A stretch of DNA of 64,000 nucleotides. Origin: Myxococcota bacterium. Its GTDB lineage: Bacteria > Myxococcota_A > UBA9160 > UBA6930. The stretch covers positions 3,904,001-3,968,000 of the forward strand of contig OZ245015.1 in NCBI GenBank assembly GCA_965223705.1, given 5' to 3'. The notes under the pieces are model-generated. The model saw only the letters and a list, made by a program, of their open reading frames with translations. It did not search any database and was not told where the DNA came from. Positions 18,847 through 31,719 of this stretch are shown here, in pieces (position 1 is the stretch's first letter; each line of letters opens with the position of its first letter). A program made the translations under genes and the position numbers.

Positions 18847-19548
18847 ATGGGAGAGCTCGGCGAAGCGTTCCGAGTCGCGTGGTCCCTCCTCGCGACGGGC
18901 GACCCCGAGCTCGTCGAGATCGTCCTTCTCTCGCTGCGTGTGAGTGCGGCGGCGCTTGTCGTCGCTTCCGCCATCGCCTTGCCCATCGGAGCCCTGCTCG
19001 GCGCGACTCGCTTCGCCGGACGACGCGCTTGCATCATTGTCCTGAACGCCTTGCTCGGTCTCCCCCCTGTTGTCGTCGGTTTGCTCGTCTACCTCGTCGT
19101 TTCCCGCTCGGGGCCGCTGGGCTCCCTCGGGCTTCTATTCACACCCACGGCCATGGTGATCGCACAGGTCGTACTCGTCACTCCCGTCATCGCCGCCGTC
19201 AGCCGTCAGACCATCGAAGATCTTTTTGAGGAGTACGAAGAACAACTGCAGTCGCTGTGCGTCGGTCCCGTCCGGAGGATCGGCACGCTGCTCTTCGAAG
19301 CGCGCTTCCGATTGATCACCGCACTTCTCGCCGGCTTGGGACGCGCGGTGTCCGAGGTGGGCGCGGTAATGATCGTCGGAGGAAACATCGCGCACTTGAC
19401 GCGCGTGATGACGACGGCCATTGCCCTCGAAACGAGCCGCGGCGACCTCGCCATGGCGTTGGCCCTCGGCGTGATTCTGATCCTGATCTCCGTGGGACTG
19501 AACGCCTCGGCCCAGGGCATCCAAATGGCGGTGCAGCGTGCCGACTGA
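18847..19548 (+). CDS. tupB: Tungstate ABC transporter permease
   Basis: GLPPVVVGL, SRSGPLG, SEVGAVMIVGGNI and TRVMTTAIALETSRG motifs. Confidence 0.88.
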   Translation: MGELGEAFRVAWSLLATGDPELVEIVLLSLRVSAAALVVASAIALPIGALLGATRFAGRRACIIVLNALLGLPPVVVGLLVYLVVSRSGPLGSLGLLFTPTAMVIAQVVLVTPVIAAVSRQTIEDLFEEYEEQLQSLCVGPVRRIGTLLFEARFRLITALLAGLGRAVSEVGAVMIVGGNIAHLTRVMTTAIALETSRGDLAMALALGVILILISVGLNASAQGIQMAVQRAD

Positions 19549-19716
19549 ACGGATCCCGCCGCTCGAACCCGACGTGCCGACTGAACGGATCCCGCCGCTC
19601 GAACCCGACGTGCCGACTGAACGGATCCCGCCGCTCGAACCCGACGTGCCGACTGAACGGATCCCGCCGCTCGAACCCGACGTGCCGAACGAGCGGATTC
19701 TCCCACTCGAGCTGCA
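19537..19716 (+). repeat. Tandem repeat: 4 identical 36-bp units (cgtgccgactgaacggatcccgccgctcgaacccga) plus 1 degenerate unit
   Basis: Exact copies at 19537, 19573, 19609 and 19645; degenerate copy at 19681; encodes (VPTERIPPLEPD)n in the tupC frame. Confidence 0.97.
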
Positions 19717-24882: not shown

Positions 24883-25668
24883 ATGAGCTACGAACGCGAG
24901 TGCAATACGGCCCGAGAGGCCGCCGCCGAAGCCGCGCGCATTCTCCTCGAGCACTACGAGCGCGGCGCGGAGGCTTGGGAGAAAAAGAAGGGAGACCCGG
25001 TCACCCAAGCGGATCTCGATGCCGATGTCGCCATTCGCGACATCTTGCGCGGGGCATTTCCCGACGATGCCATTCTCTCGGAAGAGACTGCCGACGACTC
25101 GTCCCGGCTGACGAAAGCGCGCGTTTGGATCGTCGATCCGATGGACGGCACCAAAGAGTTCACGAATGGTGTGCCGGAGTTCTGCACGTCGATTGCGTTG
25201 GTCGAAGACGGTGAACCCGTCGTCGGCGCCGTCGCGAATCCCGTGCAGAACGTCTCCGTTTGGGCGAGTCGCGGCGATGGAACCTTTCGCGACGGCGAGC
25301 GCGTTCGCGTGACCCGAACCGCCCAGCTCGAGCACGCCCACGTGATCGCGAGCCGCACCGAGATTTCACGCGGTCGATTTGACGAGCACCGCGGTTGGTT
25401 CGCGTCGTTGTCCGCGGTCGGGTCCATCGCTTGGAAGCTCGCATGTGTCGCGTCGGGAGAAGCAGATCTCAATGTGTCCTTCGCGCCCAAAAACGAATGG
25501 GATGTCTGTGCCGGGGATCTGCTCGTACGCGAGGCCGGAGGCGTCTACATGGCATTCGACGGGACGCTCCGCGCCTACAACCAGCGCGACCCACTCCTCG
25601 AGTCCCACATGGTCGCCGGGTGGGAAGAACTCGTTCGCGCTTTCTGCGAACGCGAGAACCGTTCCTAG
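24883..25668 (+). CDS. cysQ: 3'(2'),5'-bisphosphate nucleotidase CysQ / inositol monophosphatase family
   Basis: PVTQAD, LSEE, WIVDPMDGTKEF and EWDVCAG motifs. Confidence 0.82.
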   Translation: MSYERECNTAREAAAEAARILLEHYERGAEAWEKKKGDPVTQADLDADVAIRDILRGAFPDDAILSEETADDSSRLTKARVWIVDPMDGTKEFTNGVPEFCTSIALVEDGEPVVGAVANPVQNVSVWASRGDGTFRDGERVRVTRTAQLEHAHVIASRTEISRGRFDEHRGWFASLSAVGSIAWKLACVASGEADLNVSFAPKNEWDVCAGDLLVREAGGVYMAFDGTLRAYNQRDPLLESHMVAGWEELVRAFCERENRS

Positions 25669-26564
25669 TGTCGTGTGCGGCGGCTCCACAACGTGTGGAA
25701 AACGTGCAGACTGCTCCAGAACAAGTAGATCGGAGGTGCCAGCACCACCGCGTGCCACCCGCGAAGCGCGTCGACCGAGCCGAGAGCTCCGACAAGCAGC
25801 ACCGGGAGGCCGTGAGGAATGCCCACGCGAAGGGCGAGGCCGTGCCAACCGCCCCTTCGCCAGGAGCGCTCTGCGGAAACCAGGGCCCAAGAAAACACGT
25901 GGTACAAGGTCACCATCGCGAACGCTTCCGCGAATCGAAACCGGCTGCCGATCGCTTCCGCCCAGCACAGGACCACCAACGCGGTGGCGGCGGAACACGT
26001 CGATGCGCCGCTGCATCGCGCGAGAGCGACACAGGCGATGCCGATCCCTTGAAACCACCACGCCGGCGCAGCCGAACCCGGCCACGATGCGACGCCGAGT
26101 GCCTCGACAGCGCCCGCGGCCTGAAAAGCGACAAGAGCTGCGGCAAACCACGCGCCGTCGATCGCAAGGCCCGCTCGATCCGGCGAGAATCTGCTGATGT
26201 GGCCGCGCGCATAGAGACCGCTGAGGCCCCGGTCGTTTTCGATGCTGTGCCAGGTCGAAACGAACAACAGCCCGAGCCCGACCGCCGGTGCCGCACGCAC
26301 GGCTGTCGCGTACAAGACGAACGCCTCCGCGAGAACCAACACCGCAGCGCCGGTACGCCAGGGGGAGGCCCGCCACATCCGGATGGAACCGGTTCGCAAA
26401 GCGGCGCCGAGGAGGTGGCCGTAGCCGAGGACGAAGACGATGCGGTAGAGCAGCGCGTCGGCCCGGCCGGCCTCCGGGACCGCGTGGTTCGCCACGGCGA
26501 GCACGCCCAAAGAGAGCGCTGCGGCGGAGACCCGATTCGCGTTGGCAGCCCTAGCCGGTGACAT
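25665..26564 (-). CDS. His-rich polytopic membrane protein of unknown function (last gene of the Rhs operon)
   Basis: Many hydrophobic segments; His motifs GYGH, WHSIEND, LYHVFSW, PHG and SLHVFH; ATG at 26564 overlaps the CPBP stop. Confidence 0.65.
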   Translation of the reverse strand: MSPARAANANRVSAAALSLGVLAVANHAVPEAGRADALLYRIVFVLGYGHLLGAALRTGSIRMWRASPWRTGAAVLVLAEAFVLYATAVRAAPAVGLGLLFVSTWHSIENDRGLSGLYARGHISRFSPDRAGLAIDGAWFAAALVAFQAAGAVEALGVASWPGSAAPAWWFQGIGIACVALARCSGASTCSAATALVVLCWAEAIGSRFRFAEAFAMVTLYHVFSWALVSAERSWRRGGWHGLALRVGIPHGLPVLLVGALGSVDALRGWHAVVLAPPIYLFWSSLHVFHTLWSRRTRH

Positions 26565-27162
26565 AGGCACCGACGCGGGGCCAGAGGGACGCGCCCAGAT
26601 TGAAGCCGCAATGGACGCCAACGCAGACCCCGAGATCTCGGCACCGATGCTTGACCACAGCGAGGAGACAACCCACGACAAAACTCGCTGCCACCCGGCA
26701 GGGTTCTACGTGTGGAACGGCGAAGAGGAGACTCGTCCCCACCACGGCTGCGGCGGCGCTCATCCGCTTCGACCAGGCATCGAAAAGGCGACCCCGGTAG
26801 AGACATTCCTCGAACAGCGGGGCGAGAAACCAGGCGCACAGGGCGCTCATCGCCGTGAGTTCCGTGGGTTCGATGCTCGGGCATGTCCATTCTGCCCACC
26901 GAAAACAAGAGGCGATCGCGAAGACCCACAACGGGTACGTCAGGAACGCGAAGCTCGCAGCCGAGAGCACCGCTTGGGCGCATCGGCCGGGTCGCTTGCG
27001 TTGGCGGGGAACCTCGCGGAGAAGCCACGCCGCACCGCCGGCGAGACCGACACCCGTGGCAAACATCGGCGGCAACCATACGGAGACGAGCGCCGTGATC
27101 GACAAGCACAACCAACCGCCGGCGAGAAGTGCCAGGGGCGGCCCCGCTCGCAACGCGATCAC
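26551..27162 (-). CDS. CPBP (Abi/CAAX/Rce1-type) intramembrane glutamic protease
   Basis: APLFEECLYRG (EExxxR), LFAVPH (FxxxH) and VHCGFN (HxxxN); GTG at 27162 in a GTGA overlap with the upstream ORF. Confidence 0.85.
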   Translation of the reverse strand: MIALRAGPPLALLAGGWLCLSITALVSVWLPPMFATGVGLAGGAAWLLREVPRQRKRPGRCAQAVLSAASFAFLTYPLWVFAIASCFRWAEWTCPSIEPTELTAMSALCAWFLAPLFEECLYRGRLFDAWSKRMSAAAAVVGTSLLFAVPHVEPCRVAASFVVGCLLAVVKHRCRDLGVCVGVHCGFNLGASLWPRVGAYVTG

Positions 27163-27431
27163 GGCGCGTCTCCGCGGAGCGCCGCGGTCGCGCGCTCCCA
27201 ACGGCCCCCGCTGTAGAAGGCGCCCGCGACGGCGACCGAAACCACGCCGACCACAAACTTTGCCCACCAGCCAACGGTGCCGGGAGCTTCGACTCCGTTG
27301 AGACAACTCCACAAACCGACGACTCCGGACAACAGAAGAACGGGAGCGACGCCCATCTTCACCGCGCCCCGTTCGAAGTCGGCGCTGCGAGCGAGGGAGA
27401 CCGAACGAGCGGTGCCATGGTTACGCGCCAT
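27159..27431 (-). CDS. Small two-TM membrane protein, candidate Rhs immunity or accessory protein (alternative ATG at 27356)
   Basis: ATG overlaps the Rhs stop and its stop overlaps the CPBP GTG; two hydrophobic stretches. Confidence 0.55.
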   Translation of the reverse strand: MARNHGTARSVSLARSADFERGAVKMGVAPVLLLSGVVGLWSCLNGVEAPGTVGWWAKFVVGVVSVAVAGAFYSGGRWERATAALRGDAP

Positions 27432-30400
27432 GTTGCGTCCGCGCTCCGGATCGCCGCTTCCCCAGCCAGTACCAGGCCAGACACAGCTGCGCCGGGAAGC
27501 TCAGCGCGATGGCCCATGCGAGACGGCGCGGCGGGGTGGGTAGGCCGGCGAGCGCCGTCGGAGCACAACCGCCCCCTCCCGGTGCTACCGGCAACGCGGG
27601 TGGGGCCAGACCGAGCGTGAGCTCTTTGCGCTGGTTACCGGCGAAGGGCGCCGGTGTGCGCAGGCCAGCCGGAGCGGGAAACCGTGTCACGATGGCCTGG
27701 CGAACCCGTTGCCCTGCGACGAAACCGAGTGGGGTCCCCGCGGCGATCGCGACGACCGGCGCGCTCGCACCCGAAAGCGGTCCGAGAAGGGCAACGCCGG
27801 TCCCGATGGCCTCGAGCGAGTCGTTGACCAGCGGCGTCACCTCGCTGCCGAGGCCGATGACCGCTCCGCTCGAGAAGGTCGCGAGACCGACACCCGCCGC
27901 GAGGACCGGGATCGTCGGTGCGGCGACGGCGATCGCGACGCCCGTCACGAAACCCACGCCCGCGACTCCGACGGCTCCGGCAAACGCGGCTTGTGCGCTG
28001 TTGCCGGTCGGATCTTCGAACCAGATGGGGTTGCCCAGGGTATACGTGTATTGGTTGATCGCCTGGTGGACGGGGTCGGGTGCCAAGAACCGCCCGATCT
28101 CGGGATCGTAAGGGCGTCCACCGAGGATCAGGAGCGGCCCCGCCGACGAACCGCGATCGAAACCGGGTCGGTACCCGCCGTCACCGAGCCTCGCGACCTC
28201 CCCGAACGGGCTGTAGTCCGCGAGAAACACGACGTGGCCGGCCGCGTCGGTTGCGGAGATCACGTGTCCCCGCTCATCGAAGTGGCGATACTCATCCCCA
28301 GAACCGTCGAGCCCTACCCGGATCTCCCCGAGTTCCAATGCCGACGGGCGACCGGCACCGTCGACCTCGAGCCATCCCCCGAAGACGAGTCGGCGCTCTC
28401 GGACGCCGTCCCGCTCTCGTCGGATACGCCCCCAGGCGTCGTACTCGGCTCGGTAGCGATCGCCGAGCTCGAGCAAGCGCCCCGAGGCGTTCCAACGAAG
28501 CGGTTCGACTCCGCGCAAGACCGCGAGGCCCGCCTCGTCATAGGCGTAGTCGACGCCGTGAGAGGATCTCTGCAAGCGGTTGCGTTCCGCGTTGTAGAGG
28601 GGCTCGGGCTGCACGAGCTGCCGGCCATCGGACATCAACCAAGAAACACCCGAGCGATTCCCGAGAGCATCGAATGCGTAGTGCACACCGGCGCGGTCGC
28701 CGCGCGTCGCGTACCAACGCCGGAGGCGCGACGCGACCGGGCGATCGAAGCCGCCGGGAAACGCCAGGAAGTGTTTCGCGATGAAGGACGCCTGCAAACC
28801 TCGATAGGCCGAACGCGTGCGCAGCGTGTAGAGCTGCGCTTCCGTCCCGGTGAGCGGCGTCCGAAAGACCTGATCGATCTGCACGTGCCCGCTGGCATCG
28901 CGCAAGTCCGTCCGCCCCACACTGCCGTCGGCTGCGTACGTGACGGTTTGGGTGAGGCCGTTCCGGTAGCTGCGCGCTCGCAGTCGCCCGTCTTCGAAGC
29001 GGCGCTCGATCAGGGACACGCCCCCGAGCGCAACCGAGACCTCCCGACCGGCACCGTCGTAGCCGTACGAAAGACGAGCGATCTCATCGGCCCCGGAACG
29101 GAGCCGAACCTCGGCCGGTCGGCCCGCTGCGTCTCGTTCGACCCACAAACTGCGGCCGTCGGCATAGTGGAGCTCGCGCAGGCGGCCGAGCGGATCGTAA
29201 GCGTAGGACTCCGACACACCGGATCGGGGATCCGCGCTGCGCACGAGTCGACCGCGGTCGTAGTCGAACGTGAGATGCTGCTCGAGACGCCCGGCGCCCT
29301 CGTGACCGGTTCTCGTGGGATTGCCATCCGCGTCGTACTCCCAGTACGTCGACGTTCCGTTCGGTCGATCTTCGCGCGTGATTCTTCCGGTCGCGTCGTA
29401 GGTAAAGGTCGTCGCGCGTACGCGTCCGTCGGAACGCTCGAGCCGTGCGACGAGCTCCCCGAACTCGTTGTATCGGAATCGGGTCTCGCCCGAGATTCCA
29501 TTCACTGCCGGCGGGGTGATGCTGCGCCGCTTACCGTCCGCTCGGTGCGCGATCTCCAGGTACGACGTGGTGTGGGAACCGTCGAGGTTGAGATTCGCGA
29601 GGGTGAGGCGCCGGACATTGCGGTCGGCGTCAAATTCTCGAGCGACAATGCCGCCCCTCCCCGAAGCGGTGTCTCCCGCGGTCGCGAACCCCGAAGTGAG
29701 GTTTCCCACCGCGTCGTAGGCGCGATACGTGGTGGAATTTCCCGAGCGGATCCGGGTGGGCCGGCCGTGCTCGCCGTACCCGTCGAAGGTTACGTTGTCG
29801 CCCCACGGCGTCGTCGTCCAAGCGAGATTCCCGGCGGCGTCGTAGCCGAATGTGCTCCGTTCTCCCTCCCCGTTCTCGCGAAAAATCATTCGTCCCTGCG
29901 CGTCGAACCCCTGGCGCACCAACACTTGGCCCTCGAGGGTCGCTTCGCGGAGTGCCGATCGATCCGGTCGCTCGCGATTTTCCGCCGCCGCGTCGTACCG
30001 GAACGCAAGCTCGGATCCGTCGGGCCGTCGTATCCCGGCAAGGTCATCGTTCTCGTAAGCGAATCGCGTCTCGAATCCGTGCGGGTCGCGAAAGCTCGCC
30101 GGCCGTAGGCCCGACCAGCTCCATCGGGACGCCGCGCCCGTCGGGGATACGTACGAGCGGATACGCATCGAACGGTCGAACGTGACGCGATGGCTCGCGC
30201 CACCGGGATCGGTCCAGTGCGTCGACAACTCGCCGGACGGTTCCTCGACGACGGAGTAGAACCAGAATCGATAGGTCCCACGACCGTGTGCAATCGCGTC
30301 GACCCGAGCTCCGCTGTAGCGGAACAATGTGTACTCGCCGTCCGGCGTAGCCCACCCGTAGAGTTGGCCATTGGCGTATGCGTAGCGGGCCCCGCCCGTG

Positions 30401-31095
30401 CCCTCCTCGACGTCAAACCCGTCGCGCGACCGCACGAGATCGCCGTTTGCGTCATACGTGAATTGCGCTTCGCGAGCCGCGCGGTCGCGCAGGGTGACGA
30501 CACGACCCGCCGCGTCGCGCGCCAGAGAGAACAACATCTCAGGAGGGCCGTCTACGGGTTCCTGCTCGATCCGCGCGACGGCGCCCGCCGCGTCCCGGAC
30601 GAAGCGGATTCTCGGAAGATCCGAGCCGCTGCGGTGTATGTGCGTGAGTCGCCCGGCGACGTCAAAGACGTAGACGACGCCGCCTTTGGTCCTCACGCGG
30701 CGGCTGTCGACGCGCACCCAGTGACTACCCGGGATCGGCTTTCCGTCACCCACCAGAGCCGTCGGGTAGCGCGCTCCGGTTTCGTCGCGAAACTCCGCAC
30801 CGTCGTATCGGAGGTCGAAACTCCACTGCCAGGCTTGATTCGCTGTGTTGTAGTAACCGCCGACGCCGAAGGGCCCGATCCGTGTCTCGAGATCGAGGTC
30901 CGCGCGGCGGAGCAATAGATTGCCCGAACCCAAATGGAGAAAGCCACCGGGCACCGGTTGGACCAGTAGCGTTTGGTAGTCGGGCAAGCCCGGTTCGGGC
31001 TCGGGAACAACAGCTCCACTCGGGTTCGCCCACAGCGAAGCGAAACAGAGTAAGAGAACCGTGCAGGCCCTGCGAAAACCGTCGATCCACGGCAT
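27421..31095 (-). CDS. Rhs/YD-repeat protein, 1224 aa, with Sec-type signal peptide and a C-terminal GGGGC-TM-basic tail
   Basis: Many YDxxGR/YDxxGN repeats; N-terminal DUF6531-like segment; Rhs core YDPEIGRFLAPDP...NQYTYTLGNPIWFEDPTG; hydrophobic G/A-rich tip. Confidence 0.92.
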   Translation of the reverse strand: MPWIDGFRRACTVLLLCFASLWANPSGAVVPEPEPGLPDYQTLLVQPVPGGFLHLGSGNLLLRRADLDLETRIGPFGVGGYYNTANQAWQWSFDLRYDGAEFRDETGARYPTALVGDGKPIPGSHWVRVDSRRVRTKGGVVYVFDVAGRLTHIHRSGSDLPRIRFVRDAAGAVARIEQEPVDGPPEMLFSLARDAAGRVVTLRDRAAREAQFTYDANGDLVRSRDGFDVEEGTGGARYAYANGQLYGWATPDGEYTLFRYSGARVDAIAHGRGTYRFWFYSVVEEPSGELSTHWTDPGGASHRVTFDRSMRIRSYVSPTGAASRWSWSGLRPASFRDPHGFETRFAYENDDLAGIRRPDGSELAFRYDAAAENRERPDRSALREATLEGQVLVRQGFDAQGRMIFRENGEGERSTFGYDAAGNLAWTTTPWGDNVTFDGYGEHGRPTRIRSGNSTTYRAYDAVGNLTSGFATAGDTASGRGGIVAREFDADRNVRRLTLANLNLDGSHTTSYLEIAHRADGKRRSITPPAVNGISGETRFRYNEFGELVARLERSDGRVRATTFTYDATGRITREDRPNGTSTYWEYDADGNPTRTGHEGAGRLEQHLTFDYDRGRLVRSADPRSGVSESYAYDPLGRLRELHYADGRSLWVERDAAGRPAEVRLRSGADEIARLSYGYDGAGREVSVALGGVSLIERRFEDGRLRARSYRNGLTQTVTYAADGSVGRTDLRDASGHVQIDQVFRTPLTGTEAQLYTLRTRSAYRGLQASFIAKHFLAFPGGFDRPVASRLRRWYATRGDRAGVHYAFDALGNRSGVSWLMSDGRQLVQPEPLYNAERNRLQRSSHGVDYAYDEAGLAVLRGVEPLRWNASGRLLELGDRYRAEYDAWGRIRRERDGVRERRLVFGGWLEVDGAGRPSALELGEIRVGLDGSGDEYRHFDERGHVISATDAAGHVVFLADYSPFGEVARLGDGGYRPGFDRGSSAGPLLILGGRPYDPEIGRFLAPDPVHQAINQYTYTLGNPIWFEDPTGNSAQAAFAGAVGVAGVGFVTGVAIAVAAPTIPVLAAGVGLATFSSGAVIGLGSEVTPLVNDSLEAIGTGVALLGPLSGASAPVVAIAAGTPLGFVAGQRVRQAIVTRFPAPAGLRTPAPFAGNQRKELTLGLAPPALPVAPGGGGCAPTALAGLPTPPRRLAWAIALSFPAQLCLAWYWLGKRRSGARTQHGA

Positions 31096-31101
31096 GAAGC
31101 G

Positions 31102-31719
31102 TCACCATCGGAACCGGAGAAGAGCGGGTGAGAGGGAAACCGCGCAACCGGCGGCGATCCACACACCGGCTGCGACGAACACGAATGTCGATGCGGGGGC
31201 GTCGCTCTGCATCTGAAGGAGGACACGCAGGCAACCGCCGACGACGAGGTAGGCGGCACCGCCCAGGGCGCGCACCGCGGCGTGTACGGCGAGCCAACCC
31301 GCGCACTCGGCGAGGACCCACCCGTAGGCGCCTCCCGCGGCGGTGCAGCAAGCTCCGGCGATGCAGCCCAGCCGGGCCAAGGCGCTCGGCAACGCGAGAG
31401 TTTCGAGTGACGCGCGGATAAACGGGAGGCGCCGGCCGCGGGGCTGCAACAGCGCAACAGCCCCGAAGCCGACCGGCAATCCGAAAAGCGTCGCCCCGCC
31501 GCCGAGCGACAACCACTCGCGAGAAGGTGGCCAGCCACCCGCCGCGAAGAGCGCGAGGCCGCGCGCGGCCGCGGCACTCACCACCATGCTCGCGAGATAA
31601 GGGACAAGCGAAAGGCGGCCGGCCGATCCGGCGACGCCCGCCCAGAAGGCGGCGCACCAGCAGGCGAACTGAAGTGCGAGGCGTTCGTCCGCGGACAACA
31701 CGAGCCGCGAAGAGAGCAA
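31102..31719 (-). CDS. Divergent, short prolipoprotein diacylglyceryl transferase (Lgt)-like membrane protein
   Basis: Ordered Lgt-like motifs: AAAARGL (GARL), GGGATLFG (GGxSxxGG), ALARLGCIAGACC (GRxGCFxxGCC), VLAE (QLYE) and YLVVGGCLRV...D (Y...RF...D). Confidence 0.65.
   Translation of the reverse strand: MLSSRLVLSADERLALQFACWCAAFWAGVAGSAGRLSLVPYLASMVVSAAAARGLALFAAGGWPPSREWLSLGGGATLFGLPVGFGAVALLQPRGRRLPFIRASLETLALPSALARLGCIAGACCTAAGGAYGWVLAECAGWLAVHAAVRALGGAAYLVVGGCLRVLLQMQSDAPASTFVFVAAGVWIAAGCAVSLSPALLRFRW

Follow-up and report, generated by a model that had tools for sequence, protein, structure and literature searches.

Why does a gene for a secreted Rhs/YD-repeat protein lie in one chain with genes for an Lgt-like protein, a CPBP-type intramembrane protease and a histidine-rich membrane protein? 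The question is raised by five open reading frames (ORFs) on the minus strand of a 64,000-nucleotide stretch of a Myxococcota bacterium genome (GTDB lineage Bacteria; Myxococcota_A; UBA9160; UBA6930; assembly GCA_965223705.1, contig OZ245015.1, positions 3,904,001 to 3,968,000), referred to below as the window. A sequence-only reading had taken the chain for a self-contained CAAX-like pathway, in which the Lgt paralogue lipidates a cysteine near the C-terminus of the Rhs protein and the CPBP protease removes the transmembrane (TM) helix behind it. Comparison across 225 genomes of the class upheld the conserved components of that pathway and corrected its tail signature, the role of its small gene, the Rhs N-terminus and the placement of the lipid. 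The Rhs tail, the protease, the Lgt paralogue and the His-rich protein are inherited together, apparently as a conserved, dedicated and undescribed sorting system that resembles JDVT-CTERM/MrtJ in its working and is no member of it. We consider it fairly probable that this is a pathway with a single target, in which the C-terminal cysteine is lipidated, the helix is cut off and an Rhs protein with a hypervariable, membrane-active cargo results.

The Rhs protein of the window (27421..31095; 1224 aa; PF05593, TIGR01643, TIGR03696) is the sole Rhs core in its genome, which is 95% complete in two contigs, and the sole carrier there of its tail type. Its C-terminal sorting signal (27424..27567) comprises GGGGC1177 (Cys1177 at 27565-27567), followed by x-Pro, a spacer, a hydrophobic TM helix with Gln (residues 1191-1212; 27460-27525) and KRR1213-1215 (27451-27459). 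Orthologues occur in 98 of the 225 genomes; 80 loci were taken with flanks of about 7 kb and, together with the window, represent 76 of these 98 genomes, the remainder being mostly fragments. The C-termini were sorted by a rule-based script, with two rows corrected by hand (a wrong ORF in L116, a tail in another frame in L062) and two loci cut by contig ends kept outside the typing. The window's type, termed A, was found at 47 loci in 45 genomes; in it a spacer separates C-x-P from a helix that contains Gln or Asn, and Arg residues complete the tail. In type B, seen at 11 loci in 10 genomes, C-G-L-x-G-x-E is followed by a short helix and Arg residues, and 21 loci had neither type, leaving 19 genomes without A or B; two of these loci, L078 and L099, carry short Cys tails of a third appearance. 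In type A the Cys is invariant in all 43 aligned tails and the Pro is conserved in at least 90%, with C-x-P in 41/45 and Gln or Asn 18-28 residues after the Cys in 40/45. The tripartite Cys-TM-basic design of the MYXO-CTERM kind, read at first from the window alone, is thus conserved among the homologous Rhs proteins. The GGGG run is present in the window and not conserved; the signature is C-x-P with Gln or Asn in the helix.

Neither type A nor type B reached any NCBIfam CTERM model. The MYXO-CTERM model TIGR03382 and the JDVT-CTERM model NF033191 each matched only one of the 43 type A tails (E 0.67 and 0.57, respectively); type A has a single target per genome, and its consensus has no DP nine residues after the Cys. 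The lipo-invert model NF058595 was rejected for type A, with one of 43 tails at E 0.015 and a different architecture. Its true members were confined to six genomes of genus g90 (L172-L178), with none of the three partner genes nearby; these proteins are large and secreted, and a TM hairpin, a lipobox-like internal Cys and a small domain make up their C-terminal end. In the genomes checked (G000, G041, G113, G078), type A is limited to this Rhs protein. Type B, in contrast, occurs on 1-13 proteins per genome in the ten genomes searched, some of which also have a type A Rhs, and behaves as a housekeeping signal. It was observed in G105, G117, G141, G213 and G050 (L200-L225) and in G041, G182, G189, G052 and G113, and was not found in G000. 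As to a sortase for type B, no protein in five genomes scored as high as the cut-off of the myxosortase core model.

A search of the 225 genomes with one profile for each of the three neighbours detected the Lgt paralogue in 52, the CPBP subfamily in at least 53 and the His-rich protein in at least 44, of which 50, at least 52 and at least 43 are Rhs-positive genomes; all three are present in 40. Sorted by tail, the paralogue, the CPBP protease and the His-rich protein occur in 42, 44 and 35 of the 45 type A genomes, in 0/10 type B genomes and in 0/19 of the others, so the neighbours do co-occur with the tail, as had been supposed (0/29 outside type A). The paralogue was detected in just two of the 127 genomes lacking this Rhs. 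At least one partner lies within about 7 kb in 37/47 type A loci (all three in 14; CPBP in 32) versus 1/32 loci with another C-terminus, and for the ten type A loci with no partner nearby, another part of the genome contains the paralogue, CPBP and His-rich genes in nine, nine and eight cases. Type A tails also occur in five more genomes that are fragmentary, and four of these five have the paralogue. The association persists through a variety of gene orders (eight or more, convergent ones among them) and through repeated change of the tail: on a FastTree phylogeny of the Rhs shell, which has long branches, the type A label requires 14 changes, of which strong branches force seven. The paralogue accompanies the label in 44/47 rows versus 1/32 rows without it, that one row being the second Rhs of a genome that also has type A. 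Contrasts in tail and partners were seen even within genera (g4, g18, g24). Outside the order, the His-rich family was found in no other genome of a 401-genome phylum sample, a lower bound, and one weak paralogue match (8.8e-14) was obtained in a 201-genome sample.

Some partner genes are physically joined. Three protein clusters are CPBP-His fusions and in G067 a single ORF encodes the Lgt paralogue together with CPBP (L186:6658-7947, directly after a type A Rhs), although both may be read-through artefacts; a search for longer forms among 8000 candidates yielded none, which is weak evidence. The partners can also stand apart from the Rhs gene. G198 (88% complete) and G134 (80%) have partner genes with no Rhs match, and a CPBP-His-paralogue operon lies at L179:6150-8234 in G198 and, 400 kb from the Rhs, at L181:8200-10310 in G199. 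The paralogues of these two standalone operons are short and have Lys at R143.

The Lgt-like protein (31102..31719; 205 aa), the candidate diacylglyceryl transferase for the C-terminal Cys, matched no Pfam or NCBIfam model even at E<=1, PF01790 included. Its family was assembled from the loci because a single-sequence search returned only the window protein itself. PF01790 matched 13 of 19 family members at E<=0.1 (best 3.8e-13), the family profile matched E. coli Lgt 5azb in the PDB (E 7.8e-5), and hhalign against housekeeping Lgt gave a probability of 94.5 (E 8e-8). The predicted model (pLDDT 85) had 5azc as its top structural match (Z 11.2, rmsd 4.6, 194 aligned; next Z 6.1), and Foldseek returned nothing at E<=0.001. 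Because its relatives' profile matches and its fold agree, the window protein is identified as an Lgt-fold paralogue, as first read. A separate, ordinary lgt lies far from the window in the same genome, and a 100% branch splits 65 paralogues from 21 housekeeping copies of the class.

In E. coli Lgt, Mao et al. placed the donor lipid at R143 and R239 and proposed that the lipobox peptide binds HGGL (PMC4728403, available text). Y26, H103, R143, N146, G154 and R239 are listed as essential, and distant Lgts have Y, W or F for H103 and C for N146 (PMC13251419, available text). The 65 paralogues keep R239 in 65, R246 in 64, E or D at E202 in 63, and G145; R143 is R in 50 and K in 15, a count in which 34 of the 65 rows were chosen by that very motif. 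Cys is invariant at positions 146, 151 and 152. The H103-G-G-L motif is replaced by L-F-x-P, with Leu at 103 in 62/65 and Pro at 106 in 65/65. In the window copy, R116 corresponds to R143 and R165 to R239, with P82, C119, C124 and C125 as the invariant residues. Compared with E. coli Lgt (PF01790; 5azb/5azc), the paralogue thus shares the fold, the signature region, R143, G145, R239 and mostly E202/E243/R246, whereas it is only about 205-240 aa long with a short head, has lost HGGL and Y26, is dispensable and is tied to one substrate. This pattern would fit an enzyme with the same donor and a different acceptor; it would fit an inactive scaffold too.

The protease (26551..27162) was correctly recognised from the window as a CPBP (Rce1-like) glutamic intramembrane protease. 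It matched PF02517 at 59.4 bits versus a cut-off of 22.4 (E 4.5e-16), with active-site residues E118, E119, R123, H151, H184 and N188, and the EExxxR, His and HxxxN motifs are invariant in 29/29 subfamily members. It is one of six CPBP matches in its genome and fell below the NCBIfam cut-offs of MrtJ (35.5/75 bits), MrtS (33/130), MrtC (26/195) and the myxosortase core (22.5/100). A complex prediction of CPBP, Lgt paralogue and His-rich protein scored 0.01.

The His-rich polytopic membrane protein (25665..26564), which had been listed only as an operon member, proved to be a co-inherited third partner. Its family comprises 243 clusters at 50% identity and belongs to no Pfam or NCBIfam family; a PDB sequence search was blank and an ESM Atlas search gave unnamed clusters only. 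H50, H106, E109, N110, H222, H251 and H287 of the window protein are invariant, and five His, one Glu, one Asn and one Arg are kept in 149-150 of 150 members. Because these residues adjoin Arg-rich loops, they suggest that a metal is bound within the cytoplasmic half of the membrane, on a topology deduced from the sequence, and the protein is probably a metal enzyme. With its predicted model, Foldseek found nothing at E<=0.001 and structure comparison gave only matches of a generic helical kind, the best at Z 7.7, with microbial rhodopsins at Z 6.2-7.2. Blh uses His-bound iron. The Brp/Blh model PF15461 matched none of 25 + 41 members, and an hhalign comparison with eight Blh proteins was weak (E 0.0025, probability 12%), aligning three His motifs in global mode, with controls at E 0.13 and 0.65; the likeness may serve as a weak lead only. 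In one cluster (P0137) the His-rich protein is joined to an alpha/beta hydrolase, by fusion or read-through.

The rest of the Rhs protein bears on what the tail would carry. The window copy begins with a plain signal peptide (about residues 1-28, 31012..31095, cleavage site judged by eye), as had been noted, and has no lipobox Cys there; what this copy could not reveal is that most orthologues are N-terminal lipoproteins. A lipoprotein Cys was scored in 57/61 (36/38 type A, 9/9 type B, 10/12 other, 2/2 cut), and 20 rows that the script did not anchor show a similar Cys by eye. The shell (28003..31011) ends in a bipartite aspartyl-protease motif, D1007 and DPTG 1028-1031 (28003-28014), and the D-x-x-G core end is present in 79/79 non-truncated loci. 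In Tse5, RhsA, Rhs1 and teneurin-like proteins, the bipartite DPxG motif cleaves off the C-terminal part, which stays caged (PMC10684867, PMC13018210, available text). In the window this part would be a cargo of 145 residues (1032-1176; 27568..28002) between DPTG and Cys1177, hydrophobic and Gly/Ala-rich, with three hydrophobic segments and a linker. The cargo is hypervariable: in four pairs of relatives its identity is 24-39%, while shells share 77-85% and tails 81-89%; it reaches 91% in the two pairs that are most closely related among those whose tails were scored.

The 90-aa, two-TM protein encoded directly downstream (27159..27431), once counted as part of the machinery, has no homologue in the 80 loci and belongs to a set of variable, immunity-like genes at this position. 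A small TM gene directly follows the Rhs gene in 44/77 loci, versus 44/835 control positions, and by tail type in 19/45 A, 7/11 B and 18/21 other loci. A rhomboid-like gene stands at or near this position in 13/81 loci, mostly directly downstream of the Rhs gene (L046:5689-6702, L048, L041, L116, L052, L059, L062, L040, L070, L113, L105, L109 and L078); a role in protease-type immunity or stub clearance is possible. As a stand-in for the His-rich protein the rhomboid was rejected, being beside a His gene in 6/13 loci and present in all tail types.

Several known systems come close. The literature proposes a lipidate-then-cleave scheme with an unidentified Lgt-like enzyme; for MYXO-CTERM, lipidation before cleavage was put forward with the lipidating enzyme unidentified, and MrtX processes MYXO-CTERM in E. 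coli (PMC11980579). MYXO-CTERM/MrtX (TIGR03382, NF040914) shares with the present system the Cys-TM-basic tail, a CPBP protease with EExxxR and HxxxN, and the type II secretion system (T2SS), whereas it is a housekeeping system with many targets and is not co-operonic, and neither its tail nor its protease model is reached here. According to the available text of Haft, there are four Cys-CTERM signals with CPBP proteases, of which JDVT-CTERM is dedicated, and the modifying protein is unknown (bioRxiv 10.1101/2023.06.07.544157). JDVT-CTERM/MrtJ (NF033191/NF033192) likewise has one target per genome, a tripartite tail, an invariant Cys, a polar helix residue and an adjoining CPBP gene; the present tail differs in its C-x-P, longer spacer, Gln/Asn and absence of DP, and its target is an Rhs protein. 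An Lgt paralogue and a His-rich enzyme accompany the tail here, whereas Haft's neighbourhood survey, as far as it is described in the available text, found no lipid transferase; "Lgt" and "Rhs" appear nowhere in the main text of that paper, whose supplements may name further families.

With the Rhs polymorphic toxins (Tse5, RhsA, Rhs1) and bacterial teneurin-like proteins, the window protein has in common the YD shell, the DPxG protease, a variable cargo and a small downstream gene. Unlike them, the family has a Sec or lipoprotein signal and no type VI secretion system (T6SS), and the cargo is sandwiched between the shell and a conserved membrane sorting tail; where T6SS-delivered Rhs proteins have a PAAR/VgrG-type N-terminus, the window protein has a signal peptide. 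The earlier view that no T6SS is needed agrees with the finding that the sheath gene TssC (PF05943) was not found in any of five genomes examined (93-96% complete), whereas GspD was above cut-off in four of the five, G000 included. The eukaryotic CAAX pathway (prenyl transferase, Rce1, ICMT) follows the same logic of lipidation, cleavage and possibly a third step, ICMT acting in CAAX processing, whereas transferase and third enzyme are unrelated here and the signal contains a TM helix. A literature search, with most subscription journals outside its scope, found no description of this Rhs-tail system or of an operon combining these parts, in line with the first assessment; the accessible portions of PMC3482391 and PMC12419801 contain nothing on it.

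In the reading we favour, the Rhs precursor would be exported by Sec, with a lipoprotein signal in most relatives and a plain signal peptide here, and the C-terminal helix would halt transfer with Cys1177 on the periplasmic face, as the tripartite design suggests. The Lgt paralogue would then move a lipid, likeliest diacylglyceryl from phosphatidylglycerol, onto Cys1177; with the donor arginines kept and the peptide site remodelled, this activity is moderately probable. The cognate CPBP protease would cut distal to the modified Cys so that the helix is discarded, a step that co-inheritance and the analogy with MrtX make highly likely. The His-rich protein would be the third member, a link that is likely on its co-inheritance. 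That it prepares or remodels the lipid as a membrane metal enzyme is doubtful, this role being favoured because its His residues adjoin Arg-rich, probably cytoplasmic loops. The Rhs core would cleave itself at DPTG, leaving the hydrophobic cargo caged in the shell and bearing the lipid, so the lipid-anchored shell first envisaged gives way to a small lipidated cargo; the shell would keep its own N-terminal lipid in most relatives and here be held only by caging the cargo. The surface route is likely the T2SS. Autoproteolysis, T2SS export, cargo toxicity and the third step are extrapolated from the sequences. The chances are about even that the cargo acts on membranes as an antibacterial or kin-discrimination peptide, against which the small TM gene would provide immunity. 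A complete three-enzyme bacterial mirror of CAAX processing, in which Lgt lipidates, CPBP cuts and the His-ligand family modifies the product or makes the donor, to yield an Rhs lipoprotein anchored at both ends with a self-cleaved, lipidated polymorphic peptide and no T6SS, is rather unlikely as a whole. The non-essential Lgt paralogue, whose gains and losses go with one tail and which in one genome is fused to the protease, is a concrete candidate for the missing enzyme presumed to lipidate C-terminal sorting signals, and its retained donor site and replaced HGGL site suggest a way in which Lgt could be retuned to an inverted substrate. The sorting signal, the membrane enzyme family and an Rhs design with a membrane anchor after the variable cargo are new here.

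Several observations weigh against this reading. The profiles behind the co-inheritance counts were trained on the neighbours of tail-positive Rhs genes, with cut-offs chosen after viewing the score gaps (paralogue E<=1e-15, housekeeping copies at 1e-12 or worse; CPBP E<=3.4e-23); the CPBP and His-rich counts are lower bounds, and related genomes are not independent. The His-rich protein is missing from 10/45 type A genomes, G127 has an orphan His gene with a twice-frameshifted Rhs, and only 19/45 tail-positive loci have the small TM gene. Three type A genomes (G196, G197, G133) combine a variant tail and CPBP without the paralogue, and, given MrtX in E. coli, housekeeping Lgt may suffice for such tails. 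H103 is Leu in 62/65 paralogues and no aromatic stands at position 26, both sites being essential in E. coli Lgt, and the window copy is the most diverged of all (branch 2.29, the longest), with E243 replaced by Gln and R246 by Ser, the only one of 65 without R246. These residues, the further decay of the window copy, four genomes with CPBP and no paralogue, and the function of MrtX in E. coli would suit an arrangement in which CPBP sorts the tail, the paralogue is a non-catalytic scaffold or presenter, and the Cys is a substrate either of housekeeping Lgt or of no enzyme at all. Such an arrangement is nevertheless unlikely: the near-complete conservation of R239 and R246, with three invariant Cys and a Pro, argues for strong constraint on the donor pocket, and working Lgts may have Y, W or F for H103, Tyr being present in 21/21 housekeeping copies of the class.

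Could the three enzymes instead serve the N-terminal lipobox, as an Lgt/LspA/Lnt-like pathway of the Rhs protein's own? The many N-terminal lipoproteins among the orthologues are compatible with this, and the window, which has lost that Cys, also has the most decayed paralogue. Yet the N-terminal Cys is equally common with other tail types, whose genomes lack all three genes, the part lost from the paralogue is HGGL, the lipobox-binding motif, and the window keeps three intact ORFs despite lacking the Cys. This alternative is very improbable, and the work of the three genes is placed at the C-terminus because they follow the C-terminal tail, not the N-terminal lipobox. Hardly more probable is a role of the three membrane proteins in self-protection, as immunity or clean-up factors against a Cys-tailed, membrane-inserting cargo. 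CPBP genes are linked to bacteriocin self-immunity, the small TM gene is absent from 26/45 tail-positive loci, and rhomboid-like genes recur downstream, but the partners track the conserved tail rather than the hypervariable cargo, and the tail shares the design of known CPBP substrates. A real possibility, although somewhat less than even, is that the proposed maturation steps up to the third enzyme hold and the cargo serves in recognition or adhesion, as a TraA- or teneurin-like module, rather than as a toxin. The single copy in most genomes, the lack of any noticed enzymatic toxin domain or orphan CT cassettes and the frequent absence of the immunity-like gene speak for it, against an intact autoproteolysis motif, a cargo of the size caged by Tse5, and variable small TM genes coupled to the Rhs stop codon.

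The chain itself is as first described, with all five ORFs present: the Lgt-like stop lies 6 nt from the Rhs ATG, the small ORF and CPBP share GTGA, and CPBP overlaps the His-rich ORF by 14 nt. The overlap of the Rhs and small ORFs is real, with the small ATG 11 nt inside the Rhs end rather than on the stop codon. Contigs from four short-read runs, representing at most two samples of one study that is possibly the source of the window, span the stretch with six single-letter differences and no insertion or deletion. No sigma-70 promoter was found at the locus, and terminators were at chance level. In the scan of the window proteins, the Rhs repeats and core and the CPBP domain were above curated Pfam/NCBIfam cut-offs, and the Lgt-like, small and His-rich proteins reached no model at cut-off, the His-rich protein having no match even at E<=1. 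A glycosyltransferase-like membrane protein, recognised by eye, lies upstream of the Rhs gene in 11 type A loci of family f11 (e.g., L057:4792-6585), which may be plain synteny of one family. Elsewhere in the window, a tandem 33-nt repeat (PTERIPPLEPDV-type units) occupies 19538-19706 at the start of a tungstate-type transporter ABC ATPase gene. Genome-wide, 36 pattern matches in G000 include about 20 proteins whose tails were judged by eye to be PEP-CTERM, so another sorting system is in use in that genome.

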